64,000 nucleotides of DNA from Dehalococcoidia bacterium (GTDB lineage: Bacteria > Chloroflexota > Dehalococcoidia > Lucifugimonadales > UBA3495). Under the pieces are notes generated by a model, which did no database searches, was not told the origin of the DNA, and saw nothing but the letters and a program-made list of their open reading frames with translations. Within the stretch, counting starts at the first letter, position 1. Each line of letters starts with the position of its first letter. The position numbers and the translations under genes were made by a program. This document shows, piece by piece, positions 6,922 through 59,638 of this stretch. The DNA lies in assembly GCA_965204905.1 (NCBI GenBank), contig OZ242042.1, positions 898,778-962,777 of the forward strand, read 5' to 3'.

Positions 6922-7572
6922 TCAGAAGTCCTCTATGGCGGTCTCGGCCGGCTCGTGTGACACTTCCAGGCGTTCTGGGCAGTCCAGTTCGGTAATGTCG
7001 CAGAAACGGCACTCCTGCGCGCTGGGGGTGGCCGGGGGTGGGTCCGGCGCTGCCACCTTCTGGATCAGCGTGCCCAGATCACGGATGAACCCGTTGTCCA
7101 GCGCTCCCCGCGGTACTCGGGTGACGTGTCGTGGGTAGGCCACATGGCCGGCAATCATGCTGTCGTGGTACTCCGGCCTCGCCCTGGCGATGGCGTATTT
7201 GTAGATCTGGACTTGGACTGCGTGCCAGGCCTGTTCGCGGCCGGTCTTCACGTCGATGACCAGGACGTCATCACCGCGTTCCACGATCAGGTCCGGTTTG
7301 CCGACCAGGAGGGCCGTGCGGCCGCGCAGCCGGAAGACGTTTTGGTTCTCGACCGTGACGGTGTAGCCGCGGTCTTTCCACTCCTCTTTCTGCTCGTTGA
7401 GGAGCGCGGTGTGGCGCAGCATCCATTCAGATTGGTTGAAGTCAGAGGGTGGGCGATCCCAGCCCTGGTAATGGGCCTTGAACCAGACGGCCCACTCGCA
7501 GGAGTTCTCGCCGGTGAGGAGTTTGGGCAGCCAGGTTGCCCAGATGTAGGGGAAGTCTCGTTGCTCTGCCAC
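6922..7572 (-). CDS. Standalone Cas4-like PD-(D/E)XK nuclease with 4-Cys cluster (family A, copy A1)
   Basis: GTG start at 7572 chosen by homology with A2/A3, giving the same 651-nt length. Motifs: ENSCEW; GKPDLI..VLVIDVKTG (D, DxK); QVQIYKY (QxxxY); CRFCDITELDC (CxxCx5C). Confidence 0.8.
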   Translation of the reverse strand: MAEQRDFPYIWATWLPKLLTGENSCEWAVWFKAHYQGWDRPPSDFNQSEWMLRHTALLNEQKEEWKDRGYTVTVENQNVFRLRGRTALLVGKPDLIVERGDDVLVIDVKTGREQAWHAVQVQIYKYAIARARPEYHDSMIAGHVAYPRHVTRVPRGALDNGFIRDLGTLIQKVAAPDPPPATPSAQECRFCDITELDCPERLEVSHEPAETAIEDF

Positions 7573-7900
7573 GGCACGGCACCGTCCTGGGGGATTAGCC
7601 GTGGGTCGGCTTGACCTGAGTTTATTGGGTTGGCGGTTAGGTTCGCTACGGGCTGTTGTCATCAAAAACTTGGCCGCCCCGTTGGTCGGGGCGGCCGCTG
7701 TCGTGGTTAGTCCGCTACGCATCAATTGTGCCAGCCGTCGGTGCCGACGCGCTACTGGCCACTGTCAGCAATTTTGGGCTTGGCGTCGTCGACTTCGCTA
7801 TCGAGGGACGTGCGCGCCCAAACCGGCTGGTTTGGCCTGTCGGTTCTGTGGTGTCCCATCGTTAGGGTAACGGCGTTTCGGTGACATTCCCCGGTGAGGC
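7573..7900 (-). promoter_or_regulatory. Conserved non-coding leader of family A (UCR-A1), includes a C-type repeat at 7815-7890
   Basis: About 200 nt alignable by eye with 12782-12965, 31276-31470 and 42048-42380. Indels break every reading frame between copies. Contains two sub-repeats of the form TTGATGAC...CGTAGCG.AC and a terminator hairpin. Confidence 0.6.
7661..7696 (-). terminator. Intrinsic terminator inside the family A leader
   Basis: Minus-sense GGCCGCCCC-GACCAAC-GGGGCGGCC followed by AAGUUUUUGAUGA, about 95 nt upstream of the GTG start of A1. Confidence 0.55.
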
Positions 7901-10462: not shown

Positions 10463-10470
10463 CTCCCGCG

Positions 10471-11951: not shown

Positions 11952-12130
11952 GTTGATGAGGTTTTGCCAGTTCATGGATGGGCCTCCCGGGCAAATGGGA
12001 TTGATGGTCGAGATGTAGCAGGTTGTCGGGGGCAAAGTTTGGCTGTCCGGGTTGATGCCGCTGTTATTCGCCTGCTGGATGTTGCGCAGTTCCGGAGAGG
12101 GTTCGGTGCCGGTCTCTTCCCCCTCGTTGG

Positions 12131-12781
12131 TCAGAAGTCGGCGGTGGTTCCTTCTCCGTTCTGGGAGGCCTGGTCCACACGGTCGGGGCAGTCTGCGTCA
12201 GTAATGTCGCTTCTGCGACATTCCGCTTGGCTAGGCACCAGGATCGCCGGTTTAGCAGTTGCCGCTCTGCGGATCAGCGCTGTCAACTTGGCGACGAACG
12301 GGTCGTCATTGGTCAGTGCCGACACGTCCACGGCGTGGTCTTGGTAAGCGACATGCCCGGTGACCATCCGGCCTCGGTAGTGGTTCAGTGCCAATGGTAC
12401 AGCGTACTGGTAGATCATCACCTGGACGGCGTGGGATGGCCCGGCCCGGCCGGTCTTCGCGTCGATGATCACCACCTCTTGATCCTTCTGGGCGATGAGG
12501 TCGGGTTTGCCGGCCAGCGTTGCTAGGTTCCCGCGCAGGCGGAAGCTGTTCTGGTCCTCGGCGTAGACCCGGTATCCTCGCTCCTGCCAATCGTCTCTGA
12601 CTTCGTTGAGGAGCGCGGTGTGGTCGAGGAGCCAACGCGTCTGGTCAAAGTCCGACCGCGGCCGGTCCCAGCCCTGGTAATGGGCCTTGAACCAGACGGC
12701 CCACTCGCAGGAGTTCTCGCCGGTGAGCAGCCTCGGCAGCCAGGTTGCCCAGATGTAGGGGAAATCTCGTTGCTCTGCCAC
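12131..12781 (-). CDS. Cas4-like PD-(D/E)XK nuclease (family A, copy A2), Fe-S motif degraded
   Basis: Same length and motifs as A1/A3 (GKPDLI, IIDAKTG, QVMIYQY). The C-terminal CxxC reads CRRS (AECRRSDITDADC), so one cluster Cys is lost. Confidence 0.75.
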   Translation of the reverse strand: MAEQRDFPYIWATWLPRLLTGENSCEWAVWFKAHYQGWDRPRSDFDQTRWLLDHTALLNEVRDDWQERGYRVYAEDQNSFRLRGNLATLAGKPDLIAQKDQEVVIIDAKTGRAGPSHAVQVMIYQYAVPLALNHYRGRMVTGHVAYQDHAVDVSALTNDDPFVAKLTALIRRAATAKPAILVPSQAECRRSDITDADCPDRVDQASQNGEGTTADF

Positions 12782-13645: not shown

Positions 13646-14113
13646 CTAGTGCGCTGTGGCTGGGAGTCCCTCGCCGTCGGGTTCGTGACGGTCACTTTTC
13701 CGCCGGCCCGGTCGCCCTTGGCCCTCGATGTCTTGGTACTCCCGGCAGGTGTCGGCGAGGGTGCCGTCGGAGAGTATGACCTTCTCGTTGCCGCAGTCGC
13801 AGGTGCGCTCCAGGATCTGGAGGGCGAGGTCGAACTCCCGGTTTCCCGCGACATCGGCGTTGCAGTGTACACGCCTGATCCTATCATAGTGCTGGGAGTA
13901 CTTAGCGTAAGCGGACTGGCGCTTGTTGGCCTTGATATCCGCTCTACCGTGGGCGAGCCACTAGCCCAGGGTAACCGGAGAAATGTTGACGCCGCACTCG
14001 TGGGCTTGCCTACCTGACGACTTCCTGGTAAGTCGGATCGGTTTCTGGGAGGGCGCGTAGCCGGAGACGTTCTGAGCGGTGAAGAATCCGAGGCGGCTCG
14101 TGTGGTTCACCAT
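13646..14113 (-). pseudogene. Small HTH + zinc-ribbon gene (family B, copy B4), nonsense-mutated
   Basis: The C-terminal half is recognisably family B (REFDLALQILERTCDCGNEKVILSDGTLADTC), while the N-terminal third is diverged. An in-frame TAG replaces the Lys of the conserved TLGKW motif (reads TLG*WLAHGRADIKANKRQ). Confidence 0.7.
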
Positions 14114-14166
14114 GGTGCCCTCCGTGTTGTTTTCGTTTCCGCTCCTTTGTTGGTGGCGGATATGCA

Positions 14167-14250
14167 CCCAGACGGCCTGGTTTGGCTTGGGGGATCTGCG
14201 GTGGTCATTGATTAGGGTAACGGCGTTTCAGGCCAAGCGGTGGCGTCTGG
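14167..14250 (+). repeat. C-type structured repeat
   Basis: CCCAGACGGCCTGGTTTGG...TAGGGTAACGGCGTTT...GGTGGCGTCTGG. The two ends are complementary. It lies immediately 5' of B4 on the minus strand. Confidence 0.7.
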
Positions 14251-14321
14251 TGTCGCCGTGGTGGGTCTCTGTGCCGGCTGCCGGGCGGGAAAATAGTCCG
14301 ACAATCTGGGCGGTGTTAGCC

Positions 14322-26780: not shown

Positions 26781-26935
26781 GTGTCGTCCCTGTTCTTCGG
26801 TCTCATGGCACTGGCGGCAGGCGTCGGCGAGGGTGCCGTCGGGGAGTATGGTCTTCTCGTTGCCGCAGTCGCAGGTGCGCTCGAGGATCTGGAGGGCGAG
26901 GTCGAACTCGCGGGTGCGGTTGGCATCGTCGATGT
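26781..26935 (-). pseudogene. Family B fragment (B5), C-terminal zinc-ribbon part only
   Basis: Encodes ..ANRTREFDLALQILERTCDCGNEKTILPDGTLADACRQC.. and is nearly identical at DNA level to B1/B2. Confidence 0.6.
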
Positions 26936-27307: not shown

Positions 27308-27470
27308 GAAAGTCCCCTATGGCAGCCTCAGGCCGGCTCGTATGCCCCTTCCAGCCGTTCGGGGCAGTCCAGGTCGGTTATGTCGCAGAAACGACGCTCC
27401 TGCGCGCTTGGGACGGGCGGTGGATTCGGTGCTGCCACCTTACGGATCAGCGCGCCCTGGCGAGCGCGTC
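27308..27470 (-). pseudogene. Cas4-like nuclease C-terminal fragment (family A, fragment 2)
   Basis: ..LIRKVAAPNPPPVPSAQERRFCDITDLDCPERLEGAYEPA* aligns to the A1 tail (LIQKVAAPDPPPATPSAQECRFCDITELDCPERLE). The first Cys of CxxC is mutated to Arg. Confidence 0.6.
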
Positions 27471-30624: not shown

Positions 30625-31275
30625 CTAGAAGTCGTCGGTGGCGCAGTCCTCGGGCTCGTACTCGTCTTCCAAGCGTTCCGGGCAGTCTGCGGCCGTGATG
30701 TCGCAGAAGCAGCACTCCTGTCGGCTGAGCACTCGTCTTGCCGGTTCGTCGGCTGACAGGCGGCGGATCAGCGCGCCCAGGTTCTGGATGAACTGCTCGT
30801 CGACGGCCTCTGCCGAAACGCGGACCGTGTGATCGCGGTAGGTGACCTGCCCCCTGAGTTTGGCGTTTCGATACCGCTGGAGTGCCTTGGGGATGGCGTA
30901 CAGGTAGATCATGACCTGGACGGTGTGGCTTGGGCTTTGGTGGCCGGTCTTGGCGTCGACGATGACGGCGTGGTCCTCCCTGCGGGCGATGATGTCAGGT
31001 CGGCCGGCGAGTGTCGCGGTCTTGCCGTGGAGTTCAAACCGGTTTTGGGCCTCGATGTCGACGTCGTGGCCGCCGACGGTCCAGTTGGCGATGCGCTGGT
31101 TGAGGAGCGCGCTGTGGTCGAGCATCGACTTGGCTCGGTCGAAGTCGGACGGGACGCGTTCCCAGCTTTGATGGTGGGCCTTGAACCAGATGGCCCACTC
31201 GCAGGAGTTCTCGCCGGTGAGTAGCCTGGGCAGCCAGGTTGCCCAGATGTAGGGGAAATCTCGTTGCTCGGCCAC
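30625..31275 (-). CDS. Cas4-like PD-(D/E)XK nuclease (family A, copy A3)
   Basis: GTG start. ENSCEW, GRPDII..AVIVDAKTG, QVMIYLY and CCFCDITAADC. Confidence 0.8.
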   Translation of the reverse strand: MAEQRDFPYIWATWLPRLLTGENSCEWAIWFKAHHQSWERVPSDFDRAKSMLDHSALLNQRIANWTVGGHDVDIEAQNRFELHGKTATLAGRPDIIARREDHAVIVDAKTGHQSPSHTVQVMIYLYAIPKALQRYRNAKLRGQVTYRDHTVRVSAEAVDEQFIQNLGALIRRLSADEPARRVLSRQECCFCDITAADCPERLEDEYEPEDCATDDF

Positions 31276-31470
31276 GGCACGGCGCCGTCCGGAGGATTAG
31301 CCGTGGGTCAGCTTGACCTGAGTGTATTGGGCGGTTTGGGTGCGCTACGGGCTGCTGTCATCAAAAACTTGGCCGCCCCGTTGGTCAGGGCGGCCGGTGT
31401 CGCGGTTGGTCCGTGACGTGTCCATTGTGTCAGGTGTGGGCTCGGGTTCGCCAAGGCTTGGTGTCATCAA
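31276..31470 (-). promoter_or_regulatory. Family A leader copy (UCR-A3)
   Basis: Aligns by eye to the other UCR-A copies. Confidence 0.6.
31361..31395 (-). terminator. Intrinsic terminator in UCR-A3
   Basis: Minus-sense GGCCGCCCU-GACCAAC-GGGGCGGCC followed by AAGUUUUUGAUGA. The closing pair is U:G in minus sense. Confidence 0.55.
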
Positions 31471-31574
31471 TCGTTGGGGACGGTTGGGTTTGGTTCCGGC
31501 GCAGGAACGGACGGGGCAGAGGTCGGTCGGGTCTGCCGGGTTTGCCGTTGGCGGCGTTTTTGATGGTGGGCGGG

Positions 31575-31625
31575 CCTTACGTCGATCGCCGGTGCGGTCG
31601 TCCATGGTCCTCGAGGTCTTGGGGT
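31575..31625 (-). pseudogene. Family B 3'-terminal remnant (B6)
   Basis: cgatcgccggtgcggtcgtccatggtcctcgaggtcttgg matches the last codons of B2 (QDLEDQGRP.RR). Confidence 0.4.
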
Positions 31626-31771
31626 CTTCGGCTCGGCTGTTGGTGAACTGCTTGCAGAGGGTGTTTTGGTCGACCGGTTGGTAGCTGGGCATGTCCTGTC
31701 TGAGCTGTTCAGTCACCGGTTTCCCTACCATTGGCTCACGTCTGTCCTTCGGTAGTTTCGGGAGTGAGCAA

Positions 31772-32533
31772 ATGCTTGGTATGGGACTCAGTACGCCGGC
31801 TGCGGTCGCCGTGGCGTCCAAGGATATCCGGGTTTACTTTGGCAGCCCGATGGCGTACATCGTCGCGATGACGTTCATGTTAGCTACGGGTGTTGCTTTC
31901 CTGTGGGATCTCGGTTCCCCGTTCCCGGAGGCGTCCTTGGCGAATTTCTTTGGGGGAAGCGTTCACGCCGGGAACGTGTTTGGCGCTGCCCTCGTGCTTA
32001 TACCGTTGGGCCCGATCTTGACGATGCGTCTTTTGGCTGAGGAGCGGAAGATGGGTACCTTGGAGTTATTGCTCACTGCACCGGTGCGCGATTGGGAGGT
32101 GATACTGGGCAAGTACTTGGCCAGTCTGGTCTTCTTGGTCTTCATGCTGGTTCTAACGGGCTACTATGTGTTGCTCCTCTCTGTGTTCGGGCGCCCGGAC
32201 GTTGGTCCGATCCTTTCTGGCTACTTGGGGATAGTGCTGTATGGGATGGTCGCCTTGTCGGTCGGGATTTTTTCTTCCGTGTTGACGAGCAATCAGGTCG
32301 TTGCTGCGGTGTTGGGAACCGGCATTATGGGTCTGCTCTATGGAGTGAGCCGACTGGGACAGGTGGTTGGCGGGACATTTGGTGACCTTCTGGTCTTGGT
32401 GGGATTGGAGGGTCGGCTGGATGATTTCATCGTGGGGATCGTTGATTCTTCCAGCATCGTTTATTTCGTTTCTCTGGTCTGCTTGTTCTTGTTCTTGGCT
32501 TGGCGTGTTCTCGAATCGCGGCGCTGGCGGTAG
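31772..32533 (+). CDS. ABC-2 type transporter permease (GldF-like), with no ATPase partner nearby
   Basis: KDIRVYFGSPMAYIV, LLAEERKMGTLELLLTAPVRDWEVILGKYLA, and six hydrophobic segments. Confidence 0.7.
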   Translation: MLGMGLSTPAAVAVASKDIRVYFGSPMAYIVAMTFMLATGVAFLWDLGSPFPEASLANFFGGSVHAGNVFGAALVLIPLGPILTMRLLAEERKMGTLELLLTAPVRDWEVILGKYLASLVFLVFMLVLTGYYVLLLSVFGRPDVGPILSGYLGIVLYGMVALSVGIFSSVLTSNQVVAAVLGTGIMGLLYGVSRLGQVVGGTFGDLLVLVGLEGRLDDFIVGIVDSSSIVYFVSLVCLFLFLAWRVLESRRWR

Positions 32534-32537: not shown

Positions 32538-32990
32538 TCACATCTCGGCCGTTCGTTTCTGTGATGCTTGTGTGATTTTGCGCCGGGCCGGCCGTCCTTG
32601 GTCCTCGAGGTCCTGACACTGTCTGCAGGATTCGGCGAGGGTGCCGTCGGGGAGTATGGTCTTCTCGTTCCCGCAGTCGCAGGTTCGCTCCAGGATCTGG
32701 AGGGCGAGGTCGAACTCCCGGGTGCGGTTGGCGTCGGCGGCGCAGTGTTCGCGCTTGAGTTGGTCGAATTTGATAGCGAACCGGGCGTAGGCGGTTTGAC
32801 GCTTGTTGGCTTTGATGTCGGCGCGGCCTTTGGAGACCCACTTGCCGAGGGTGCTGGGGGACATGGAGACGCCGTACTCGCTGGCGTGTCTGACGACGTC
32901 GTGGTAGGTGCCGTCGGTATCGGGGAGGGCGCGCAGGACGGCGGCGATGTTCGGAGCGGTGAATTGTGCGGTGTTGTTGAAGTTGGTCAT
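32538..32990 (-). CDS. Small HTH + zinc-ribbon protein (family B, copy B1)
   Basis: 150 aa. HTH-like YHDVVRHASEYGVSMSPSTLGKWVSKGR, then CDCGNEK...CRQC. Confidence 0.7.
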   Translation of the reverse strand: MTNFNNTAQFTAPNIAAVLRALPDTDGTYHDVVRHASEYGVSMSPSTLGKWVSKGRADIKANKRQTAYARFAIKFDQLKREHCAADANRTREFDLALQILERTCDCGNEKTILPDGTLAESCRQCQDLEDQGRPARRKITQASQKRTAEM

Positions 32991-33038
32991 GGTGTCCTCC
33001 TGGTGGCTCTCGGTTTCTCCTCCAGGTGTGGGACTTGT

Positions 33039-33126
33039 GCTTGGACGGGCTCAGTTTGGGCTGATTGGCCGGGCCGGCCCGTCGGGTAGGATAACGGCGG
33101 TTGGGGCGAAACGGTATTGTCTTGGG
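33039..33126 (+). repeat. C-type structured repeat, 5' of B1
   Basis: GCTTGGACGGGCTCAGTTTGGG...GGGTAGGATAACGG...GCGAAACGGTATTGTCTTGGG. Confidence 0.7.
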
Positions 33127-33511
33127 TTGCTGTGCAGGGCCTTTTCAAAGTTGTGCGATTGAAGTCTATCCGCTCGTCCTGAGCTGCCGTAGGTCCGCCA
33201 GTGGCGGGTCGAAGGACGCGCTCGTGGTTCGACGGGCTCCCGCCTCAGGCGGACGTTCCGCACCATGAGCGAGCACAGGGGACTTTGGAGCGGCCCTGGT
33301 TGCTGTGGCGGGCTGATTATCAGGGCACCGGGTAGCGGAACGGGCGACCCATCAGAAACACGCCAAATCCGGCCCGTAGCCGAATTTTTGCGCCGCCCTC
33401 GAATAGTATTGTGGAATCGAGGAGAGGCCGTCACGGGGCGTCTGGGAGGTGTCCTCGCCCCTTCATTTTTCGGGGTTGTGCGTCCGTTCTACCCGCGTGG
33501 GGTGAGAGTGT

Positions 33512-33558
33512 GCGAGACATGGGCGGAGCGAGGTCACACCGCTCCGCCCATGTCTCGC
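33512..33558. other. Perfect 19-bp inverted repeat
   Basis: GCGAGACATGGGCGGAGCG-aggtcacac-CGCTCCGCCCATGTCTCGC, about 140 nt downstream of the 33699 stop. Confidence 0.6.
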
Positions 33559-33698
33559 AGCTACACCGGTTGGATTGATATATGTTTTGCGTCTTGGTTG
33601 TCTCCGGGTCTTCGTGGTGCTTGGCGTTATCGTGCCGGCGAAGAGGCTCTGGCATACGATGCCGGAGCCTGTGCTGAAGGTCTGCCGGTTCGTCTGAT

Positions 33699-35288
33699 TT
33701 AGCGAAAGCTCTCGAGCATTGCTCTTATCTGGGCCTTGAGGTCCAGTATCCGCCCGGCCGTCCGTTCACTCGGATTTGCTTCCTCGATCTTGTTCAGCAC
33801 TTCCAGGGCTGTTCCCCATTCTATTGTGATCCCTGATCTTTCGCTCCAGTTCATCAGCAAGTCGGTAGCTAGGTCAGGGTACGAGGACACCGCGCTTGAG
33901 CGTTTGAGCTCGATGAAAAGTGGAATGTCCGGTCCGTTCCATGGGGTCGCTTTTGCTAGTGTCACGGCTTCGGCGAAAGGTTCGGTCAGGTGGGGCACCC
34001 ACCCAACCATGTGGGTGCCCTCCGCCGGGCTGATCGGTTTGGGAGAACCCCTGTTGCGGTCTTGCCAATATTCCCTGACCCAGCGCTCCCACCAGTCTTT
34101 CTGCTGTTCGACGTCGGCTTCCCGGAGCCTGTTTTTCACGGCCTCGGCGACGAGCTCAGCCGTTTCCTTGCTGCTGGTTTTGACGGTTTCCTTGAGCCAC
34201 TCCCTTGGTTCCGCGGCGTAATGGCAGAGTAGCTTCGTGTATGCGTCGGCGAAGAGGCGTTTGGCACTGAGTTCGTTGTTCGGTTGCTCGACGAGTTCAC
34301 TGAATTTGTCCTGGAAAATATTCCCCAGCACTTGGGCCACTTGTGGGGTGATATTCTGTGCTTCGACTAGCCCACCCCATGCGGCTCTCTCTCTGTTCCC
34401 ACCGCTAGTGAACATCGGTTGGATGATTTCTTCGGCCCACGGCTGGTCAACGTGCCACAGAAACCCGGCCTGTCCCGCGAGGATTGCCGCGCCCAGGTTT
34501 CCTTTGAGAGAGTCATCGGCAACGATCTGGTTAAGACCCCTCATGCTGGTGGGACTGAATCTTTCTCTCTGCGATGTCCGTGTCCTGACGGCTGTCGATT
34601 CTAGCCAGAACGTGGTGAGGTATCCCATCTGGTAGAAGTTGAACGCTGCTTCGTGCCACCCTTGAACCGGAATATCTTCGCCGCTTCTGAGGTGGTCCCA
34701 TAGCGGCAGCGCCACCTGCTCTGCTTCGTCGATGAGATTGATGGCGTAGCTTTTGCCTCCGTTTCTCGTCAAAGCGTGAAGGCTTTCGGCTATGTCCCCG
34801 GCGTGGTGCGTGTAGACGTCTTGCATGGAGAACCATTCCAGAACTTTCCGGTATTGCTCCTCTTGCAGGTCGGCCACACGCCATCCCGATATGATGTCTT
34901 TCCATACAGGCTCCGACCACTGCCGTTGCTTGGCCAATTCTCGGGCTACGCCGTCCCCCCATTGGGGGTTTTGGCGCGTCGTCTCCTGAACGCTCCACAG
35001 GCCTGGTATGAGTTCCTCGGGTTGCGCCTGGCGGTTGCTCTCCATGAGCCAACTGACGAGTTGCTCTGCCGCCGTTTCCTTCAGGGAATCCGGTGTGAAA
35101 GGGTCGCCGCTGATGACCACGGGTTCACTTATCATCAGCCCCGGCTGTAGCGGGTCTGTCCATTCCCAACTGTGTGCTTCCTCCATCGGCGCGATCTCAT
35201 CCCTGAGTATCTGGCACTCCGGGGCGGTTTCTTGCAATGCCTTCAGCAGGTTGTACCGGCGGCGCTCGGTTGCGTTCTGAGCGGTCAT
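33699..35288 (-). CDS. Large all-helical Trp-rich partner of the SIR2 protein (DUF4020-like, from memory)
   Basis: 529 aa with its own RBS GAGGAAGAG, 23 nt after the SIR2 stop. C-terminal WWERWVREYWQDRNRG...MVGWVPHL. Confidence 0.7.
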   Translation of the reverse strand: MTAQNATERRRYNLLKALQETAPECQILRDEIAPMEEAHSWEWTDPLQPGLMISEPVVISGDPFTPDSLKETAAEQLVSWLMESNRQAQPEELIPGLWSVQETTRQNPQWGDGVARELAKQRQWSEPVWKDIISGWRVADLQEEQYRKVLEWFSMQDVYTHHAGDIAESLHALTRNGGKSYAINLIDEAEQVALPLWDHLRSGEDIPVQGWHEAAFNFYQMGYLTTFWLESTAVRTRTSQRERFSPTSMRGLNQIVADDSLKGNLGAAILAGQAGFLWHVDQPWAEEIIQPMFTSGGNRERAAWGGLVEAQNITPQVAQVLGNIFQDKFSELVEQPNNELSAKRLFADAYTKLLCHYAAEPREWLKETVKTSSKETAELVAEAVKNRLREADVEQQKDWWERWVREYWQDRNRGSPKPISPAEGTHMVGWVPHLTEPFAEAVTLAKATPWNGPDIPLFIELKRSSAVSSYPDLATDLLMNWSERSGITIEWGTALEVLNKIEEANPSERTAGRILDLKAQIRAMLESFR

Positions 35289-35311
35289 AGCGTCTCTTCC
35301 TCGTTGGAGTC

Positions 35312-37201
35312 CTATCGGAGGGCCTCGACTACGCGTCGTCGATAGTCATCGCTGAGATCCTTGAATTCCTCAATGAGCAGTTGGTCCGTCTCAAGATTTC
35401 TCCCGCTGTCCATGGGCACGGCCTTCCTAAATAGCCACTCGACTTTTTCGTGTGCCCTTTGGTCCGGTCTCATGCGGACTGAATGGACGGCGAGCCTTCT
35501 TGCCAGCGGGGACTGGGAGGCTATCAGGCGGTCCAGCCATGATTCCAGCAGTTCCGGTTCATTCTGTCCCATCCACTCCAAGCAGTCTCTGGCGATGTTC
35601 ACCATCTGGTCGATGCCCGCTTCTCGGCGGTTGCCTTGGGAATCCCCTATCATGTGACGGCCTGAAGAGTCTGTGTCGCGTTCGGCGGTGGCCAGACCCC
35701 ATTGCTCCAGGGTTCTATGTCGGTTTTCGATATGCCTCACCGCGTGGTCCAGGGTTATGGCCGCGACCGTTCCCATGTGCTGGTTCACGTTGGCCCAGGC
35801 CGCCGACAATATCCAGGCCTCTCCCAAGGTCGTCAGCTCGATTTGGTTCCCTGCGGGTCGCCTTGGTTGCGCTCTGATGACAGGCCGGAACAATTCGTCG
35901 AAGATGTTCGCGGCTTCTTGGTATAGTTCGCTCTGCACACCTAGTTCAGCCAGCCGGTATAGGCCGTCCGATTTGCGGGCATCCTGGTCTGCTGGGGTTG
36001 CTGAGAGCAGGTACGATACCCATCGGCTTATCGTGCTGGACGTTCTGGTATGTCCATCATCGAGGAGCCGGTGGGTGATGTCCCACCAGATTTGCGGATG
36101 GAGTTTTTGTCCGGCTTGCGTGATCGTGGCTATGGCTTCGTCTGGGTCGTGAGCAGCAAGCAGTCGCGCCAACCACGTCAGAAGCGTGCCATTTTCCGTG
36201 ATGGGCGCGTCGTCAAAAGCCCCCGCGACGTACTGCTTGTCTATGCACCACTCGACCCATCGGAGGCTCTGTGCGTTCGCTGTGAATGCCGGCGTGAGTT
36301 CCGGGTCCTGCAATGCTCGGTCGATGATGTTCTGCGATCCTGTGTCAAGGGGAGGATTCGGTTGGCTCGCTATTTGCGCGATCATCTGGTGCCATGTTGA
36401 GGAAGACCTTCTCTGGTACTCCGCCAGCTCGGCGATGGCTTCGGCTGCCTCGTCATGGTTTTGGTTTTCCCCTAGTTGGTAAGCGATGGGTTCTATACCT
36501 AGAGAATGCCAACTTTGATTGCCAACCGTCAGTTCGTGCGTGAGAATGAACCTCCGCGCTGGTTCGTTGCTGGTCGGCATGGCCCGCGCCAGATAGCGCA
36601 CTATCGGGTCTTGGTGGCTGTAGCCGACGAAGAGGACGTGCTGTGTCCTGAAAAGTCCTTGGAGGAACTCCAGTGCCCAGCGTTCGTCCAAGTATGCTCT
36701 GCCTATGTCTGAGTCCGTTAGGACCATGTCTTGAGGCTGGTCAATTACTCCGTGCAGGTCCACTATTCCGGTGAATCGTCCGCAGGGCGGAAGTGCCGGC
36801 GCAGCGTAAACTTTCCCGGTTTGTTGGATTTCCTTTCCTGCGCTCGTCGCCTCGAACAATTGGTCGAAGTTGGTGGTTACGAGTTTTGGCGTCGCCCCCC
36901 TTGGTCGAATGTCCAACAGGTCTCGATGAAGTTGGTTTGGATGGGCGCCCGTGAGTTGCTCAACGATGTAGGCTCTTATGTCGCGTCCCTCCATTTCAAG
37001 CCTACCGAGGAACTGATCGTCATTTTCCTCTTCGGTTCGGTTCACTTGGAAGTGCTCCTGCACTTGTTTTAGCAGAAGAGGAAAACTGGGCAGGTTCGAT
37101 GGGCTTGGGATCGACACGCCAGCTCCGGCGAAGACCACCAAGTTATCGTCGCGGAGTGCGTTCATCAGCCTATCGTTGAATTCTACGTTCCCGAGTTTCA
37201 T
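35312..37201 (-). CDS. SIR2_2-family (sirtuin-like NADase-type) protein with a helical C-terminal extension
   Basis: LVVFAGAGVSIPS (GAGxS), VTTNFDQLFE and IVDLHGV. About 350 aa of helical repeats follow. Confidence 0.85.
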   Translation of the reverse strand: MKLGNVEFNDRLMNALRDDNLVVFAGAGVSIPSPSNLPSFPLLLKQVQEHFQVNRTEEENDDQFLGRLEMEGRDIRAYIVEQLTGAHPNQLHRDLLDIRPRGATPKLVTTNFDQLFEATSAGKEIQQTGKVYAAPALPPCGRFTGIVDLHGVIDQPQDMVLTDSDIGRAYLDERWALEFLQGLFRTQHVLFVGYSHQDPIVRYLARAMPTSNEPARRFILTHELTVGNQSWHSLGIEPIAYQLGENQNHDEAAEAIAELAEYQRRSSSTWHQMIAQIASQPNPPLDTGSQNIIDRALQDPELTPAFTANAQSLRWVEWCIDKQYVAGAFDDAPITENGTLLTWLARLLAAHDPDEAIATITQAGQKLHPQIWWDITHRLLDDGHTRTSSTISRWVSYLLSATPADQDARKSDGLYRLAELGVQSELYQEAANIFDELFRPVIRAQPRRPAGNQIELTTLGEAWILSAAWANVNQHMGTVAAITLDHAVRHIENRHRTLEQWGLATAERDTDSSGRHMIGDSQGNRREAGIDQMVNIARDCLEWMGQNEPELLESWLDRLIASQSPLARRLAVHSVRMRPDQRAHEKVEWLFRKAVPMDSGRNLETDQLLIEEFKDLSDDYRRRVVEALR

Positions 37202-37852
37202 GAGCGTTCGCGCTTCAATTGGTCCACTGACTTAGGACACGGACCGGACTGCAGTCGCCGGTGAATCGGACAACGGGAGTGCCTTGTTTCGTGGCTTCCC
37301 GTTCGTCACCGAGCATGGTGGCCGCGACCGTTTTGACGCCGCGTCGCGAGCACGAATCATTGAGCCTGGGGCGTCTCGAGAACGCCTCGGGCTTATCCGG
37401 CGAAGCGGCTTGAAGCAAGCCCAACGCGGTGGCGTCTTGTTCCACGCTGGACCGGGACGGTGATGCCCAGCCAGTTGCCGGCAATCTTGTTCCACTCCAT
37501 TCGCGTGTCCGTTGGGACTATCCCAACGTTCCGTCCTTGGGGCAGGAGCCTGACGGGCGGAGAACCGTGTAGCGGCGGTTTGGACGGCCGGCTATGATGT
37601 TCGCAAACAGACCGTCGAAACGCGATTGTGGATGCCAATGTTACATCGGGCTAAGGTTTCGGTAAAGTAGCGCGGCGTCGGCCCATGATTTCGGTACCCC
37701 GCGGAGTCGATACCAACCCGTTTGGCTACCCTGCAGCCACAGTCATCTGACAGCGGCACGATCATGGCGATTTACCAAGTTATCTCCAGTCAGGACGGTT
37801 GCGGAATTCGTCGGTATATTCGTCAATATCCGCCCCTGATCCCAAGGATTTG

Positions 37853-37868
37853 GAGTAACGAAATTTCC
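37853..37868 (+). repeat. Junction motif copy M1 (GAGTAACGAAATTTCC)
   Basis: One mismatch to the GAGTAGCGAAATTTCC consensus. It sits where the B gene is missing next to an orphan C repeat. Confidence 0.6.
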
Positions 37869-37917
37869 CCGGTGGCCACCAGGCGGTCTTCGTTGTCTCC
37901 TCCAGGTGGGGCTTGTG

Positions 37918-38005
37918 CTCAGACGGGCTCAGTTGGGCTGCATGGCCGTACCGGCCCGGGGCGGGTAGGATAAAGGGGTTTCAGGCGAAACGGTAGTGTC
38001 TGGGG
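37918..38005 (+). repeat. C-type structured repeat (orphan, B gene lost)
   Basis: CTCAGACGGGCTCAGTTGGG...GGGTAGGATAAAGG...GCGAAACGGTAGTGTCTGGGG. Confidence 0.7.
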
Positions 38006-38160
38006 TTGCGGAGGCGGGCTGTTTATCGGGGTGCCGGGTATTGGAACGGGCGGCTCGAGTGGGCCGCCCTATCGTGTGAGTGGGTTTGGTTGGTGTGATC
38101 TCGGGACGGGGACGGTGTTGGGTTCGGAGCCTTACGACACGGGTATCTTGGTGGCGTTGG

Positions 38161-41901: not shown

Positions 41902-42047
41902 CGGTCCCGGCCTTATCTGATGAAACGAGGGGAGAGTACGCCCGCCCCTGGAAGCCTGTCAACAATCATCCCCCCGCCTTCAGGTTCGATTTCACTCTTC
42001 CCCAGCTTATGCGAGCATTATTCATGGTCATACAGAACCACGGTAAG

Positions 42048-42380
42048 CCACGGCGCGGCACCGTCCGATGGAGTAGCCGTGGGTCGGCCTGTCTCGAGTC
42101 TATGGGGCGGTGCGTTGGGGTCGCGCTATGGGCGGCTGTCATCAAAAACTTGGCCGCCCCGTTGGTCAGGGCGGCCGGTGTCGCGGTTGGTCCGCGACGG
42201 GTCCATTGTGTCAGTTGTGGGCTCAGGTCCGCTACGGCTTGGTGTCATCAGATTGCCGCTCTGATGCCGCTGTCTTCGCTATCGAGGGACGCGCGCCCAG
42301 ACGGGCTGTGCTGGCTTGTCGGGTCTGCCGTGTCCCATCGTTGGGTAACCGCGTTTTGGCCGAAATGGGAGTGTGTGGGG
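42048..42380 (-). promoter_or_regulatory. Family A leader copy (UCR-A4) with no Cas4-like gene, about 150 nt upstream of the amidase; includes a C-type repeat at 42296-42380
   Basis: Aligns with UCR-A1/A3 over its whole length and even retains the CCAC (GTG start) remnant at 42048. Confidence 0.6.
42141..42176 (-). terminator. Intrinsic terminator in UCR-A4
   Basis: Same hairpin and U5 tract as UCR-A3. Confidence 0.55.
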
Positions 42381-42571: not shown

Positions 42572-42943
42572 TCACTGGCCAGTCTCGTCGCTGATCACCT
42601 GGCGCAGTTGGACGATGCCTTGTGTCGTTGCCCGCCGTGCGGTCCTGAGTTCTGTTGGGCTCAGGTTGGCTTGGTAGAAGTGGGAATGCAGTCTTTCGGC
42701 GGCTGCCCAGTCCGAAACCCACCGTTCTGAACCCTGCAGGTCGCGCAGGTTGGTTGCAGTGTTGCGGTACGTTCCGTGGCTCAATGCCGGCCATCCTCTG
42801 AGTTCTGACACGGCCAGCGATAGTTGGGCATAGGCCCCCCACAGTAGTTCGGCGGCAATCATGGTGTTGCCGCCGGGGTTGAATTCTTGGTTGGAGCGTT
42901 CCATGAACTCCATGCTGGCGTCGAGCCGCTGCTGGGTGTTCAT
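42572..42943 (-). CDS. Hypothetical helical protein, PaREP1/HEPN-like pattern
   Basis: AAELLWGAYAQLSLAVSELRGWPALSH. 4-nt overlap with the upstream gene. Confidence 0.4.
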   Translation of the reverse strand: MNTQQRLDASMEFMERSNQEFNPGGNTMIAAELLWGAYAQLSLAVSELRGWPALSHGTYRNTATNLRDLQGSERWVSDWAAAERLHSHFYQANLSPTELRTARRATTQGIVQLRQVISDETGQ

Positions 42944-43632
42944 GCGGTTGCCCGCCTCTCGGCGTTCAGGTGGTTCGCCAGCTGGATGGCTCGCCTGGCG
43001 AAATTCCTGGCGTCTTCGTCGGAGCCGTTTTCGCTGTCGTATCCCATGCTGAACTTTACCAAGTCGGGCTGGGCCATGGCGGCGCTGAACGCGCTGGTCA
43101 GGTTATGGCCTAACTCTGATGAGTCGGCTAAGGCTTGGTGAACATCCCAGGTGATTTCTGGGTTCCGCCCAGTTGCCAGTAGTTCGACAGCTTCGTGGAC
43201 TCCGTCTTCGTCGTGGGACCAACCGTTTCGGGCGGCGATGGCGGCTATGGAACATATCACGGCGCTGGCCAGGCTTTCCGTGGCTTGCTGGTGTTGCATA
43301 TCCAGAAAATACAGGTCGGCTCGACTGAAGTAGTGAGTGGCTCGCTCGGTGGCGACTTCGTCTATGGTGTCGCTGAACTTATCTGCGACTGGAGCGTAGT
43401 CACGTTGGCTGTGCTGGTGCATTTGGGGGTGTATGGCGCCCTTCGTTGCTACGGCCGCCATGTGGGCGGCGTTGAGGGCGTCGGTGATCGGACGGCGGCT
43501 CTTGCTCACATCAACCCTTGCCAGCAGGTTATTCCGCAGTCTGTCGGCTTCGGCGGCGTTGACGGTGCCGACTTCCTTCTCGTAGGCGGCGATGGCGACG
43601 CGTTCCGCCAGGTCCAAGATGGTTTCATTCAT
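42940..43632 (-). CDS. Hypothetical helical protein, second PaREP1/HEPN-like pattern
   Basis: ATESLASAVICSIAAIAARNGWSHDEDGVH. Confidence 0.4.
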   Translation of the reverse strand: MNETILDLAERVAIAAYEKEVGTVNAAEADRLRNNLLARVDVSKSRRPITDALNAAHMAAVATKGAIHPQMHQHSQRDYAPVADKFSDTIDEVATERATHYFSRADLYFLDMQHQQATESLASAVICSIAAIAARNGWSHDEDGVHEAVELLATGRNPEITWDVHQALADSSELGHNLTSAFSAAMAQPDLVKFSMGYDSENGSDEDARNFARRAIQLANHLNAERRATA

Positions 43633-44103: not shown

Positions 44104-44523
44104 CTACGGCGATCGCCGGGGCGGTCGTCCTTGGTCTTCAAGGTCCTGGCACTGGCGGCAGGTGTCGGCGAGGGTGCCGTCGGGGAGTATGGTCTTCTCG
44201 TTGCCGCAGTCGCAGGTTCGCTCCAGGATCTGGAGAGCGAGGTCGAACTCCCGGGTGCGGTTGTCGGCGGCGGCGCAGTGTTCGCGCTTGAGTTTGTCGT
44301 ACTTCAGGGCGAACCGGGCGTAGGCGGTTTGACGCTTGTTGGCCTTGATGTCGGAGCGGCCTTTGGAGACCCACTTGCCGAGGGTGGTGGGGGACAGGGC
44401 GACGCCGTACTCGCTGACCTGTCTGATGACGTCGTGGTAGGTGCCGTCGGTATCGGGGAGGGCGCGCAGGACGGCGGCGATGTTCGGAGCGGTGAATCGT
44501 GCGGTCTTGTTATCGTTGGCCAT
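44104..44523 (-). CDS. Small HTH + zinc-ribbon protein (family B, copy B2)
   Basis: 139 aa. TLGKWVSKGRSDIKANKRQTAYARFA and CDCGNEK..CRQC. Confidence 0.7.
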   Translation of the reverse strand: MANDNKTARFTAPNIAAVLRALPDTDGTYHDVIRQVSEYGVALSPTTLGKWVSKGRSDIKANKRQTAYARFALKYDKLKREHCAAADNRTREFDLALQILERTCDCGNEKTILPDGTLADTCRQCQDLEDQGRPPRRSP

Positions 44524-44570
44524 GGTGTCCTCCTGGCAGTCTTCGTTCTCTCCTCCAGGTGGGACTTGTG

Positions 44571-44656
44571 CTCAGCCGGGCTGGTTTGGCCTATTTGGCC
44601 GTACGGGCCCGTGGGGTAGGATAACGGTGTTTGGGGCGAAATGGTAGCGTCTCGGG
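44571..44656 (+). repeat. C-type structured repeat, 5' of B2
   Basis: CTCAGCCGGGCTGGTTTGG...GGGTAGGATAACGG...GCGAAATGGTAGCGTCTCGGG. Confidence 0.7.
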
Positions 44657-44666
44657 TTGCTTACCA

Positions 44667-44682
44667 GGCGATTTCGCTACTC
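44667..44682 (-). repeat. Junction motif copy M3
   Basis: Plus strand GGCGATTTCGCTACTC, reverse complement GAGTAGCGAAATCGCC. Confidence 0.6.
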
Positions 44683-45116: not shown

Positions 45117-45132
45117 GAGTAGCGAAATTTCC
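45117..45132 (+). repeat. Junction motif copy M4 (GAGTAGCGAAATTTCC)
   Basis: Exact consensus. Confidence 0.6.
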
Positions 45133-46849: not shown

Positions 46850-46865
46850 GAGTAGCGAAATTTTC
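46850..46865 (+). repeat. Junction motif copy M5 (GAGTAGCGAAATTTTC)
   Basis: One mismatch. 118 nt after the stop of the 253-aa gene. Confidence 0.6.
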
Positions 46866-50106: not shown

Positions 50107-50469
50107 TCAAATTCTGGGTAGCGAAATTTCCTGCGTCATCTTCTCGTTGCCGCAGTCGCAGGTGCGCTCCAGGATCTGGAGGGCGAGGTCGAACCCGTGG
50201 GTGCGGTTGGCGTCGGCTGCGCAGTGCTCGCGCTTGAGTTGATCGTATTTCTGGGCGAACCGGGCGTAAGCGGTTTTACGCCTGTTGGCCTTGAGGTCGG
50301 TGCGGCCTTTGGAGACCCACTTGCCGAGGGTGGTGGGGAACAGGGTGACGCCGTACTCGCGGACCTGTCTGACGACGTCGTTGTAGGTGCCGTCGGTATC
50401 GGGGAGGGCGCGCAGGACGGCGGCGATGTTCGGAGCGGTGAATTGTGCGGTGTTGTTGAAGTTGGTCAT
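50107..50469 (-). pseudogene. Family B copy B3, truncated inside the zinc ribbon
   Basis: Near-identical to B1 for 107 aa. Homology stops right after CDCGNEK, exactly at motif copy M7, so the second Cys pair is lost. Confidence 0.65.
50116..50131 (+). repeat. Junction motif copy M7 (GGGTAGCGAAATTTCC)
   Basis: One mismatch. It marks the B3 truncation point. Confidence 0.6.
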
Positions 50470-50518
50470 GGTGTCCTCCTGGTGGCTCTCGGTTTCTCCT
50501 CCAGGTGTGGGACTTGTG

Positions 50519-50606
50519 CTTGGACGGGCTCAGTTTGGGCTGATTGCCCGTACCGGCCCGTCAGGTAGGATAACGATGTCTCGGGCGAGACGGTAGTGCT
50601 TGGGGT
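50519..50606 (+). repeat. C-type structured repeat, 5' of B3
   Basis: Almost identical to 33039-33126 in its first half. Confidence 0.7.
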
Positions 50607-50721
50607 TGCGGTGGCAGGCTATTTGTCGAGGTGCCGGGTAGTGGAAAGGGCGGCCCATTCGAGCTGCCCTTGCGTTTGGTGGTTTTCCCGGCGTAGTCGG
50701 ACCGGGGGTATTTGGCTTGCC

Positions 50722-52149: not shown

Positions 52150-53922
52150 TGATCCACGCCGAGATTCCCGCCAATTTCAGTGATGGTGACGACGCCGTGG
52201 GGGTTATCGCCAGGATCTCCGAACCACGCCGGTTTGGTTGGCCAGCAGGGTCAAGTTGGCCACTGTGGCGGCCAGGTACAACTGGCACTTGGTCTTGACC
52301 CGTCCGAAGTAGCGAGCCTGCCGGATGCCCAACTGCTCCAGTCGAGCCAGTCTATGCTCCGCCACCACCCGTAGCTGCCGGTACTGATCGTAGTCGGCGC
52401 TTTGCTGCAAGGCCCGCGCCGATTGCAGCAAGCCTTCCTGGGGGTGGATCAGCACCTGGCGTCCCTTCCTGCCCTTGGCCGCAAAGCACTGGGACCGCAA
52501 CAGGCAGCCCTGGCACACCGCACCGTCAAACCGGAAAGCTTGCAGCCGACGCACCGTCCCAGTAATGTCGGTGCGTTTCCCCGCCGGCACGATGGTGCGA
52601 GTGATCTGTCCTGCCGGACAGGTGCAGCTTCCCGCCGACAGGTCGATGCTGAAGTCTTCCTTGGGGAAACATTTCCGGTTGGGACGACCCGGCACTCGGG
52701 CCACCAGCCTGCGCCCAGCATCTGCGGAAACCTGACGGGTGCTGCCGTCGCCGTAGGCGGTGTCCCCCAAGGCCTCCACCACCGCCACATCGGCGCTGGC
52801 CTCGCTCTGTTCCACCAACTCCAGCGCCCCCAGATTATCGGGAGCGTTCCCCGGCAACACATCCACCGCGGTGATCAATTGGCTGTCGGTGTCCACCACC
52901 ACAGCGGCCTTGTGTCCGTCAAAACGCCGGCTCTTGCTCTTGTGGCCGTGGCGCATCTGTAGATCGTGTACCGACACCATCCGGTCCTTGCTCACACCAT
53001 CTTTCAGGCTCACCCCGCCGTCATCATCGCCACCGCTGTCGCGCTTCACGTCCTGGAGCAGTAATTGTCCCAGCAAATCCGCCGTGTCAACCATCGCCTG
53101 CCGCTCGGCGCTGTCGACGGGCACCCAGTCTTGGGTTTGCCGAGCCAACTCCAGCAACCGGTCGGCGTCGGCCACAATCTGTCCCAACAACCTCCGCCGC
53201 GCCCGACGGTTGGACCAGTCGATGACCGCTTCCCCCTTCACGCTACTGCCCACGTAGCGTTTGTAACCCTGGCCCTCCGCCCAGCGCCGCACCGGCACAC
53301 CGTCCACCGCCGCCAGCGCCCGCATCAGCTTCACGATGCCGTCGCCCAGAAGATTGTAAGTGTCCTTCACCGCACCGCGTCCCAGGACGTAGGTCGTGTC
53401 CATGGCCACCCGCATCCCACGCTTTCCCTTCAGGTAGCCGGCCTCCCGCGCGAGCCGCAGGCTCTGCTTGAATACCTCACGCACCTTGTCGTGCAAAATC
53501 AACTGCGCTCGGAACACCTGCAGCGTGCTCTTGGCAAAGGGCCGATCCTCGATCTCAATGCCCAACGCTACCTTCCACCGGATGTCGAAATCGGCTCTGG
53601 CCTTGGCCTCGGCGTCGCTCACCTTGTCGTGGGTCTGCAACAACAGCGCCGTGGCCAGCAGGCTCGGCGGCACGCTGACCCGCCCATTGTCCATGCAGTA
53701 CAACTCGGCGAAGTCGGCGTCGCGAAACAGCTGGCCCCGCAATGACGCCAGCAGCCGATAGAAGGTGTCTCGGCCCACCAGGTCCAGGTACAACTGGTCC
53801 GCCTCCCAAAGCCCCCTCTGGTCGGATCGCTCGCCCATCATGGTCTCTCTCACTTCGCTCCGCTATCTCAACTGGCCCGGAGTATAACTCCCTACTCCAT
53901 CAACCGGGGTTTCCGACCGCAT
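52150..53922 (-). mobile_element. IS1182/IS5-like insertion sequence (ends approximate)
   Basis: The right end is placed where homology with the truncated second copy (54355-54523) stops (GGGGTTTCCGRCCG). The left end is not resolved. Confidence 0.6.
52204..53853 (-). CDS. DDE transposase with DUF772-type N-terminus
   Basis: 549 aa. GRVSVPPSLLATALLLQTHDKVSDAEA..DIRWKVALG, and C-terminal GIRQARYFGRVKTKCQLYLAATVANL. Confidence 0.85.
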   Translation of the reverse strand: MRETMMGERSDQRGLWEADQLYLDLVGRDTFYRLLASLRGQLFRDADFAELYCMDNGRVSVPPSLLATALLLQTHDKVSDAEAKARADFDIRWKVALGIEIEDRPFAKSTLQVFRAQLILHDKVREVFKQSLRLAREAGYLKGKRGMRVAMDTTYVLGRGAVKDTYNLLGDGIVKLMRALAAVDGVPVRRWAEGQGYKRYVGSSVKGEAVIDWSNRRARRRLLGQIVADADRLLELARQTQDWVPVDSAERQAMVDTADLLGQLLLQDVKRDSGGDDDGGVSLKDGVSKDRMVSVHDLQMRHGHKSKSRRFDGHKAAVVVDTDSQLITAVDVLPGNAPDNLGALELVEQSEASADVAVVEALGDTAYGDGSTRQVSADAGRRLVARVPGRPNRKCFPKEDFSIDLSAGSCTCPAGQITRTIVPAGKRTDITGTVRRLQAFRFDGAVCQGCLLRSQCFAAKGRKGRQVLIHPQEGLLQSARALQQSADYDQYRQLRVVAEHRLARLEQLGIRQARYFGRVKTKCQLYLAATVANLTLLANQTGVVRRSWR

Positions 53923-59131: not shown

Positions 59132-59638
59132 TCACCGCGCCATCAAAAGATCACGAAGTTCGGCAATGCTGTTCGCGATATGGTCTGGTCTTGACGCCAC
59201 CAGTTCCGAAGGATCCGCGATTCCCCAAGTGGCACCTATTGAAATTACATTCGCCGACCTTGAGGCTTGGGTATCATGCGGTCTGTCGCCGATATGCACG
59301 ACTTCACTTGGTGTGAACCCTGACCGTTCCATAACGATATGCAAGCAAGATGGGTCAGGCTTCCGACGAGCCATATCACGGTATCCGATGACTAAATTTT
59401 CGGCTACCGGCCACTCTCTCAGGCCGGCTACTATCTCGGCACAGCGCCTGGGGCTGTGTGTGACGATTGCCAGCGTTTGTCCATTGGCAGCCAATTCGGT
59501 CAAAAGCTCATCCACTCCGGTATAGGGTTCAACTTGGCTCATCTCCTGGAAAACAGCCTGCCATTGCTGTCGATTGCGAAGGCTTTCCAGGTGACTCGTG
59601 TCGACCAGTGTCTGATCGAAATCGAATACGATCAGCAT
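59132..59638 (-). CDS. HAD-superfamily phosphatase
   Basis: Motif I DFDQTLVDT, later VTHSPR and IGDRPHD. Overlaps the upstream gene by 7 nt. Confidence 0.85.
   Translation of the reverse strand: MLIVFDFDQTLVDTSHLESLRNRQQWQAVFQEMSQVEPYTGVDELLTELAANGQTLAIVTHSPRRCAEIVAGLREWPVAENLVIGYRDMARRKPDPSCLHIVMERSGFTPSEVVHIGDRPHDTQASRSANVISIGATWGIADPSELVASRPDHIANSIAELRDLLMAR

Follow-up and report, generated by a model that had tools for sequence, protein, structure and literature searches.

In restriction-modification systems, controller (C) proteins are small helix-turn-helix (HTH) proteins, with an HTH of the Xre type (~80-100 aa), whose genes lie just upstream of that of a PD-(D/E)XK nuclease. A quite different arrangement is found in T4-type phages, in which promoter-early stem-loop (PeSL) elements accompany ORFan cassettes: the available part of its description (Arbiol et al. 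2010, PMC2839356) presents small open reading frames (ORFs) that have their own stem-loop terminator and leader, behind conserved heads of ~100 bp that are repeated in one direction within a hyperplastic region and whose flanks vary by copy. In addition, the available text of Hudaiberdiev et al. (2017, PMC5704561) describes a monophyletic group of solo Cas4 nucleases in many Chloroflexi, inherited mainly vertically. Here we compare with these systems a 64-kb stretch of a Dehalococcoidia chromosome (contig OZ242042.1, positions 898,778 to 962,777; hereafter "the window", meaning the whole stretch that was analysed) and, within it, a small gene, B, which recurs in several copies and is in part followed by a gene, A, for a Cas4-family nuclease.

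Defence islands change fast, yet only for a few types of element is it known what machinery and regulatory logic lie behind this. In the islands studied here, B and A stand at the head of units whose cargo includes Dsr1, restriction-type genes and other genes of defence, in a host lineage that is poorly studied. We tentatively interpret B as a DNA-binding regulator or adaptor (a DNA-targeting helper) of these island units, a reading that we prefer with some reserve. The novelty lies in the B family itself, in the cassette that carries it and in its association with a multi-copy nuclease of Cas4-like type, while the elements of its fold and its general role are of familiar kinds. In the literature searched, as far as the available parts of the papers extend, we found no description of the B family or of a B-like partner of a solo Cas4. 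If B does control or target the units, it would provide a handle on the regulation and reshuffling of islands in uncultured Chloroflexota, as well as a new HTH plus zinc-ribbon family for annotation; if B is merely a local regulator, the addition would be a modest one.

Copies, leaders and cassette form of gene B

To catalogue the gene, the 150-aa product of the B1 ORF (32538-32990, minus strand) was used as the tblastn query against the whole window. All six copies or fragments listed in an earlier note on this DNA were recovered, at coordinates that the note had correct to ~15 nt, and the protein motifs that it described as common to them were also correct. The copies are as follows.

32538..32990, minus strand: B1, an ORF of 150 aa, intact to aa 137, with its C-terminal tail replaced
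44104..44523, minus strand: B2, intact, 139 aa (tblastn match 44523-44113, 86% over aa 1-137); the source of the structure model
50107..50469, minus strand: B3, truncated, with homology limited to 50140-50469 (85% over aa 1-110 by tblastn)
13697..14116, minus strand: B4, a pseudogene of a second B lineage (56% over aa 2-138 by tblastn)
26784..26927, minus strand: B5, a fragment covering aa 86-133 (88% by tblastn)
31586..31639, minus strand: B6, a 3'-end fragment covering aa 120-137 (61%, E 0.013 by tblastn), the sole weak match

A seventh, intact copy, 93% identical, lies in a second island of the same genome (G000:C1:386765-387178). The short B6 match is backed by collinearity at the DNA level, the window at 31169-31622 aligning at 81% with this second island (R2) over a stretch that takes in the 3' end of B, the spacer and the beginning of A, the gene that follows. 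The damage in B4 consists of a TAG at 13961-13963 replacing a conserved Lys, a garbled N-terminal third and the loss of the last zinc-ribbon Cys. B3 ceases to resemble the other copies at 50139/50140, with a GTAGCGAAAT motif (50118-50127) lying 12 nt away. In B1 every conserved residue up to aa 137 is present, after which a foreign tail takes over where the gene meets the end of an ABC-2 ORF that converges on it. This ABC-2 membrane protein ORF (31691-32533, plus strand), which stands alone between B6/A and B1 and ends 5 nt from B1, has the look of part of a gene that was captured, or left stranded, at the join of a rearrangement.

All the window copies that keep their 5' end (B1, B2, B3 and B4) are preceded by the same leader of ~140-150 nt, of which the downstream ~50 nt constitute a B-specific ribosome-binding site (RBS) region and the upstream ~90 nt a C-type repeat, belonging to a family that also heads units other than B. 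The leaders of B1, B2 and B3 carry CCTGGAGGAGA...CAGGAGGACACC-ATG and GTTATCCTA, and that of B4 carries GTTACCCTA together with a diverged RBS region. The earlier note was therefore right that every copy with a 5' end has the same leader, whereas the identical RBS region it reported is found only between B1 and B3, with B2 close and B4 diverged. One leader of this type stands without a B gene.

32991..33131, minus strand: B1 leader, with an RBS region of ~50 nt and a C-type repeat at 33040-33130
44524..44680, minus strand: B2 leader, with a C-type repeat at 44570-44660 and a GTAGCGAAAT motif at its upstream edge (44671-44680)
50470..50624, minus strand: B3 leader, with a C-type repeat at 50519-50609
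14117..14260, minus strand: B4 leader, with a C-type repeat at 14167-14256 that includes GTTACCCTA
37871..38009, minus strand: orphan B-type leader, with a C-type repeat at 37917-38009 and a B-type RBS, without a B gene, upstream of the split Dsr1 unit

Across the 4.23-Mb genome, an nhmmer profile identified 17 copies of the C-type repeat, all of them on the minus strand (17/17) and all in island regions (17/17), five of which (5/17) lie directly ahead of B copies. Contigs from a metatranscriptome run (X13) lie over parts of the stretch, with a cover that parallels that of the DNA run from the same sample; as contigs they cannot reveal transcription, its starts or its strand.

B1, B2 and B3 share a block of similarity of ~480-550 bp, extending from the leader almost as far as the stop codon. 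In a second clade of B loci from other genomes (L015-L019 and L023) the conserved block extends from ~45 nt before a hairpin to ~8 nt past the stop codon. Here the hairpin is perfect and carries a T-run (GGGCGGCTC-AATT-GAGCCGCCC-TTTTTG), and is followed by a leader of ~170 nt and then by the ORF, while the flanks are unrelated, even between copies inside one genome. A similar hairpin precedes the C-type repeat in G000. In genome G614 the second-clade leader is present five times, each time directly before one of five full-length B copies. These alignments indicate that B travels as what appears to be an insulated cassette of ~0.55-0.67 kb, in which the ORF is preceded by a leader with a strong Shine-Dalgarno sequence and, ahead of that, by a GC-rich hairpin resembling a terminator. 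Neither terminal inverted repeats nor target duplications were seen at the aligned cassette boundaries, and a DDE-type OrfB is absent after B, where the block ends ~8 nt past the stop codon and gives way to unrelated flanks.

The closest structural analogy to these B cassettes is the PeSL plus ORF cassette of the phages. As in the available account of PeSL elements, a small ORF comes with its own terminator-like stem-loop and leader, conserved heads are repeated one way, and flanks vary by copy, as would be expected in both cases if recombination between heads shuffles the cassettes. A stem-loop and conserved head stand before the ORFs in a single orientation, with a hairpin and T-run both at the 5' edge of the cassette and before A. 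In contrast to the phage elements as that account presents them, the B cassette resides in a bacterial chromosome, has no detectable sigma-70 consensus promoter and encodes a conserved, multi-copy and putatively DNA-binding protein rather than an ORFan.

Distribution, constraint and fold of the B protein

The B family is small, with 32 clusters among 5.8 billion, and 183 representatives at E<=0.001 among 1.84 billion, many of which cover B only in part or fuse other sequence to it. Some of these fragment and fusion entries are probably the result of assembly breakage at a repeated gene, because the short-read contigs of run X1 break at B copies. One database protein of 251 aa, P0032, joins a fragment of a resolvase domain to B's C-terminal half; it is a chimera that arose through a break within B. 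In species-representative genomes, B was identified at 17 loci in 12 metagenome-assembled genomes (MAGs), all titled Dehalococcoidia. Sampling by taxon found B in 8 of 20 genomes of the genus (with up to seven matches per genome), in 2 of 100 of the family, in none of 120 other genomes of the order and in none of 400 of the class. No relatives were found in GenBank phages or in IMG/VR, the latter searched with the closer alignment and two single distant proteins. B is an accessory, patchy, multi-copy gene in a few Dehalococcoidia MAGs. The earlier note had raised a picture that would speak against its proposal, in which B homologues are single-copy genes inside ordinary prophages with no associated repeats; the homologues we found are instead multi-copy and linked to leaders. 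Close relatives of the host turn up in runs labelled as sponge and coral metagenomes.

A tree was used to examine how the copies within one genome are related. The five B copies from G000 need three label changes on this tree, with B4 grouping with copies from other sources (support 100/98), and the B paralogues of G000 differ at synonymous sites by a dS of 0.12-0.16, as much as from another species' copy. Since the tree requires three label changes and the paralogues are no closer to one another than to the copy of another species, the sequences point to several arrivals or exchanges as the likely origin of the copies. Local duplication was considered as a source of the copies and rejected, both on this dS and because B4 belongs to another lineage.

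The coding signature of B1-B3 is strong (GC3-GC2 of 0.34-0.40), and the ratio of non-synonymous to synonymous divergence (dN/dS) falls between 0.20 and 0.73 across all 78 pairwise comparisons of B. On the strength of both, B is a real protein under moderate constraint.

A structural model of B2, generated using AlphaFold from 26 sequences (pLDDT 83.5), bears out the domain reading of the earlier note. The model has an N-terminal three-helix HTH (helices 12-24, 29-39 and 45-60), two long helices that form a helical hairpin (67-82 and 85-102), and then a zinc knuckle and a short final helix. The C-terminal zinc ribbon or knuckle contains four cysteines in the arrangement C104xC106...C122xxC125; W51, G55, D58, C104, C106 and C122 are invariant in the alignment and C125 is nearly so. 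The protein has a pI of 8.9 and a basic C-terminal tail. Distant relatives keep the N-terminal domain and, mostly, the four cysteines. H82 and C83 were considered as further zinc ligands and are unlikely to be such, being absent in these distant relatives, whereas the CxC...CxxC pattern persists.

B has no family match in Pfam, NCBIfam or PADLOC. The likeness to phage small terminases or to transposase OrfA proteins, suggested in the earlier note, came down to weak leads. HTH_Tnp_1 (PF01527) gave 13.6-14.5 bits against B1 and B2 (E 0.04-0.08), below its gathering cut-off of 24.1, and reached a similarly sub-threshold E of 0.0027 against a distant B relative, P0164; PHROG 4102, annotated as 'terminase small subunit', matched B1 at E 0.001 and B2 at E 0.11. 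No Pfam terminase family matched B at E<=1. When the B profile was compared by hhalign with the Sf6 terminase family alignment, the probability was 3.6% over 14 columns, which comprise the third HTH helix only. Foldseek returned no match to B in the PDB at E<=0.001; its best viral match had E 0.048, several of the weak viral rows being small terminases, and the top structural matches, all of them weak, are DNA-binding HTH domains of Myb/SANT-like and terminase-like types. The ESM atlas yielded no usable match, and a PDB sequence search gave rows at E 0.08 and 1.2 only, which is chance level. Because the Sf6 comparison has so low a probability and aligns nothing beyond the third HTH helix, the likeness to terminases and OrfA is one of shared fold elements and not of family membership. 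Set against Sf6 gp1 (PDB 3hef; PF20901), B shows no profile-level homology, has a zinc ribbon in place of the C-terminal barrel of the terminase, and is without terminase neighbours or viral relatives in the searches made. With IS3-type OrfA proteins B shares an N-terminal HTH and a helical extension, but its matches remain below the gathering score, and it has neither an OrfB/DDE partner nor inverted repeats.

Link to the Cas4-family nuclease A and candidate roles of B

The gene that recurs downstream of B, A, encodes a stand-alone nuclease in which the four cysteines and the D..DxK and QxxxY motifs are kept. Its features in the window are as follows.

30625..31275, minus strand: A, a Cas4-family PD-(D/E)XK nuclease of 216 aa, downstream of B6 and B1
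12131..12781, minus strand: A copy, 916 nt downstream of B4
6922..7725, minus strand: A copy with a C-type repeat (7817-7881) directly ahead of it and B absent from the interval
5729-6000 and 27310-27457: A fragments
31276..31478, minus strand: spacer from B to A, or A leader, with a hairpin of terminator type (GGCCGCCC-N8-GGGCGGCC) and, after it, TTTTTG; L008 has the same element

This order of genes recurs in other genomes. At the 17 loci elsewhere, an A gene or A fragment lies within 2.5 kb downstream of the central B copy, on the same strand, in six cases (L008, L010, L012, L020, L021 and L022); A also follows secondary B copies in L008 and L023 and is found downstream of B in L030/L031. 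Within G000, four of the seven B copies are followed by A (B1, B4, B6 and the copy in the second island). In tight pairs the two genes are separated by a gap of 120-310 nt that contains its own hairpin and TTTTTG, so that the pair has the appearance of two insulated units in succession and not of a proven operon. Of the 20 genomes in the genus sample, 13 possess A and 8 possess B, none of these 8 being without A, a co-occurrence for which the kinship of the genomes makes a formal test unsafe.

A is the commoner of the two genes, with at least 686 clusters and 12 matches in G000; in the 13 genus-sample genomes that possess it there are 1-10 matches each, many of them fragments, and the best 120 A clusters are all at least 64% identical to the window copy. 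Like the solo Cas4 of the Chloroflexi, A is a Cas4-family nuclease that stands alone. In the genus it is multi-copy, patchy and rich in fragments, unlike the mostly vertical solo Cas4 presented in the available text of PMC5704561, in which neither an HTH/zinc-ribbon partner nor a spread over islands in many copies and fragments is described. A gene of a methylase family, c5, follows A at 4 of 16 A loci from the genus, two of three members scanned having an N6_N4_Mtase match. In several other genomes (L036-L038, L033 and L035) A is followed by a c5 methylase-family gene and a GmrSD_C/Excalibur gene.

The B family, the selection on it, its fold elements, the boundaries of its cassette, its co-occurrence with A and the order of the two genes are observed here; DNA binding, a target site and a regulatory role are inferred, in a model that could run as follows. 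In some Dehalococcoidia, B cassettes stand at the heads of the units that make up hypervariable defence islands, typically directly upstream of a multi-copy Cas4-family unit, A, which is itself followed by restriction or defence cargo. B, a lineage-restricted protein with a Myb/homeodomain-like tri-helical HTH, would bind a specific sequence within or close to the unit heads, be it in its own leader, in the A leader or at the hairpin. Bound B might then control the expression of the nuclease and cargo unit or steer the nuclease to such units, in the manner of the controller protein of a restriction system, and copies and fragments would have accumulated by repeated arrival of related cassettes together with recombination between the shared unit heads. 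The findings are compatible with the role proposed in the earlier note, in which B may regulate the repeated modules or act as their recombination-directionality factor.

On this model the closest functional analogy to B would be a controller protein encoded ahead of a nuclease. B resembles such proteins in being a small HTH protein upstream of a PD-(D/E)XK nuclease gene, with a DNA methylase gene after the nuclease gene in some relatives. It differs in that its HTH is not of the Xre type (HTH_3/HTH_31, PF01381-type, had no match in B in the Pfam scan), in having a zinc ribbon and in the hairpin before the nuclease gene; moreover, A is a Cas4-family iron-sulphur (Fe-S) enzyme that mostly occurs without B, and no methylase follows any of the three A copies in the window.

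Several observations weigh against B as a regulator or adaptor of the island units. For approximately every second B copy there is no A in the vicinity, and the terminator-like hairpin between B and A means that a single operon is not required. Five of the 13 A-positive genomes of the genus sample lack B, and, of 16 A copies retrieved from the genus, 13 have neither B nor an analogue of B upstream, from which it follows that A does not need B. No palindrome or operator conserved across clades was identified, the leaders differing by clade. Three scans of the leader for a sigma-70 consensus promoter gave 0 sites, in a phylum whose promoter rules may differ, leaving the -10 element that the earlier note saw in GTTAYCCTA unsupported. 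Finally, dN/dS values that reach 0.7 indicate a fairly relaxed constraint on B.

Of the other explanations the best placed, while still unlikely, is that B is a recombination accessory, acting as a directionality factor or architectural DNA binder for serine recombinases that insert or excise island modules, or for recombination between unit heads. At 4 of the 17 loci (L015, L018, L021 and L023) B lies upstream, by 0-5 kb and on the same strand, of a module made up of fam16, a recombinase fragment, an XRE protein and a large serine recombinase; L036 has a compact series of A, c5, fam16, a short recombinase-family ORF and XRE; and the resolvase-B chimera P0032 stands among many database matches that are fragments or chimeras. 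However, no serine recombinase is present in the window, the nearest in the genome being ~21 kb past the window end on the opposite strand, and G000 is without homologues of fam16 and XRE. Furthermore, 13 of the 17 loci have no recombinase within 10 kb, and the fragments in the databases may be assembly breaks at a repeated gene, as seen where X1 contigs break at B.

A still less likely explanation is that B is the antitoxin or immunity partner of A, the two forming a toxin-antitoxin-like or self-restraint pair, which would explain the patchy, multi-copy and decaying distribution. The recurrent B-then-A order and the restriction of B to A-positive genomes in the genus sample (8/8) are what such a pair would lead one to expect, and both genes are patchy, multi-copy and often broken. 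The intact A genes without B, at 13 of 16 fetched A loci and in five B-less genomes of the genus sample, argue against this dependence, as does the hairpin that stands between the two genes. In addition, A is highly conserved and retains Fe-S and catalytic motifs of a kind typical of repair and processing nucleases.

Lower again in our estimation is a more far-reaching scheme in which B recognises the hairpin and repeat heads and, together with A, drives the excision, capture or exchange of insulated cassettes. If true, this improbable scheme would amount to nuclease-based shuffling of defence-gene cassettes in the chromosome, a counterpart of PeSL mini-circles and of integrons that has no canonical integrase.

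It is very unlikely that B is an OrfA-like DNA-binding subunit of a small mobile element or of its remnant, with copies generated by transposition. The sub-threshold HTH_Tnp_1 matches of B1, B2 and P0164, the occurrence of multiple copies with fragments and the sharp boundaries of the cassette would fit such an origin, but the ~0.6-kb cassette has no transposase ORF and no terminal repeats or target duplications at its aligned boundaries, and, because the G000 paralogues are as far apart (dS 0.12-0.16) as they are from the copy of another species, they are not recent products of transposition. Least probable of all is that B serves a phage satellite or a degraded prophage in packaging or hijacking, as a protein of small-terminase type, a reading for which the PHROG 4102 match and the weak Foldseek rows are outweighed by the failure of the Sf6 and Pfam comparisons, the lack of relatives in IMG/VR and GenBank phages, and the absence of a large terminase, portal or capsid from Pfam scans of 47+37+9+9 window and locus ORFs. 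The regulator or adaptor reading is the one that we prefer.

Defence island context

The window as a whole is a defence island, containing RmrT/RmrA (8003-9824), a split Dsr1 (33699-37201), Shosta (59632-62248) and a GmrSD_C gene (4528-5637), the last of which lies downstream of an A copy. It also contains three DDE transposases (10530-11876, 52204-53853 and 56364-57923), none of which adjoins B. Scans of the window for tRNA/tmRNA genes and Rfam families found none, so there is no tRNA-type integration anchor in it, and a tandem repeat finder revealed nothing relevant.

Downstream of B2 lies a unit comprising a PaREP1-family protein (E 1.2e-5; 42572-42943, minus strand) and an unassigned 230-aa protein (42940-43632, minus strand), behind which a remnant of the A leader (42047-42359) is present without an A gene.

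Contigs from public runs join the repeats that flank the split Dsr1 unit (33074-33081 and 37950-37984), with short sides of 30-43 letters. One joint leads from 37950 to 33074 (runs X13 and X6; back by 4877) and the other from 33081 to 37984 (run X1; skipping 4902), one of the joints having 24 intervening letters. Duplication, circle or deletion forms are all possible sources of these joints. They were not counted as excision products, the sides being too short or other letters lying between.

A 10-nt motif, GTAGCGAAAT, was found four times in the window (0.04 expected) and 22 times on contig 1. The positions of the window sites, and of three pairs elsewhere on the contig, are as follows.

44671-44680, minus strand: GTAGCGAAAT site in the window
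45119-45128, plus strand: GTAGCGAAAT site in the window
46852-46861, plus strand: GTAGCGAAAT site in the window
50118-50127, plus strand: GTAGCGAAAT site in the window
415906/416464, 2976067/2976956 and 3856101/3856884: GTAGCGAAAT pairs on G000 C1

The wider consensus is approximately AATCGGA-GTAGCGAAAT-TTCCTC, and the motif often occurs as inverted pairs 450-900 nt apart, at loci in other genomes as well. One pair abuts the B2 leader and one copy marks the truncation point of B3. Such pairs have the appearance of the termini of a small element, either mobile or regulatory.

An insertion sequence of the DDE_Tnp_1 family (10470-11952) matches, without a single difference (100% over 1483 bp), one that lies in the second island of G000 and has therefore been active recently. 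At the far end of the window, the Shosta-like region (59632-62248) comprises two ShosA-type genes with DprA domains and, between them, a ShosT-like ORF that overlaps the upstream one.

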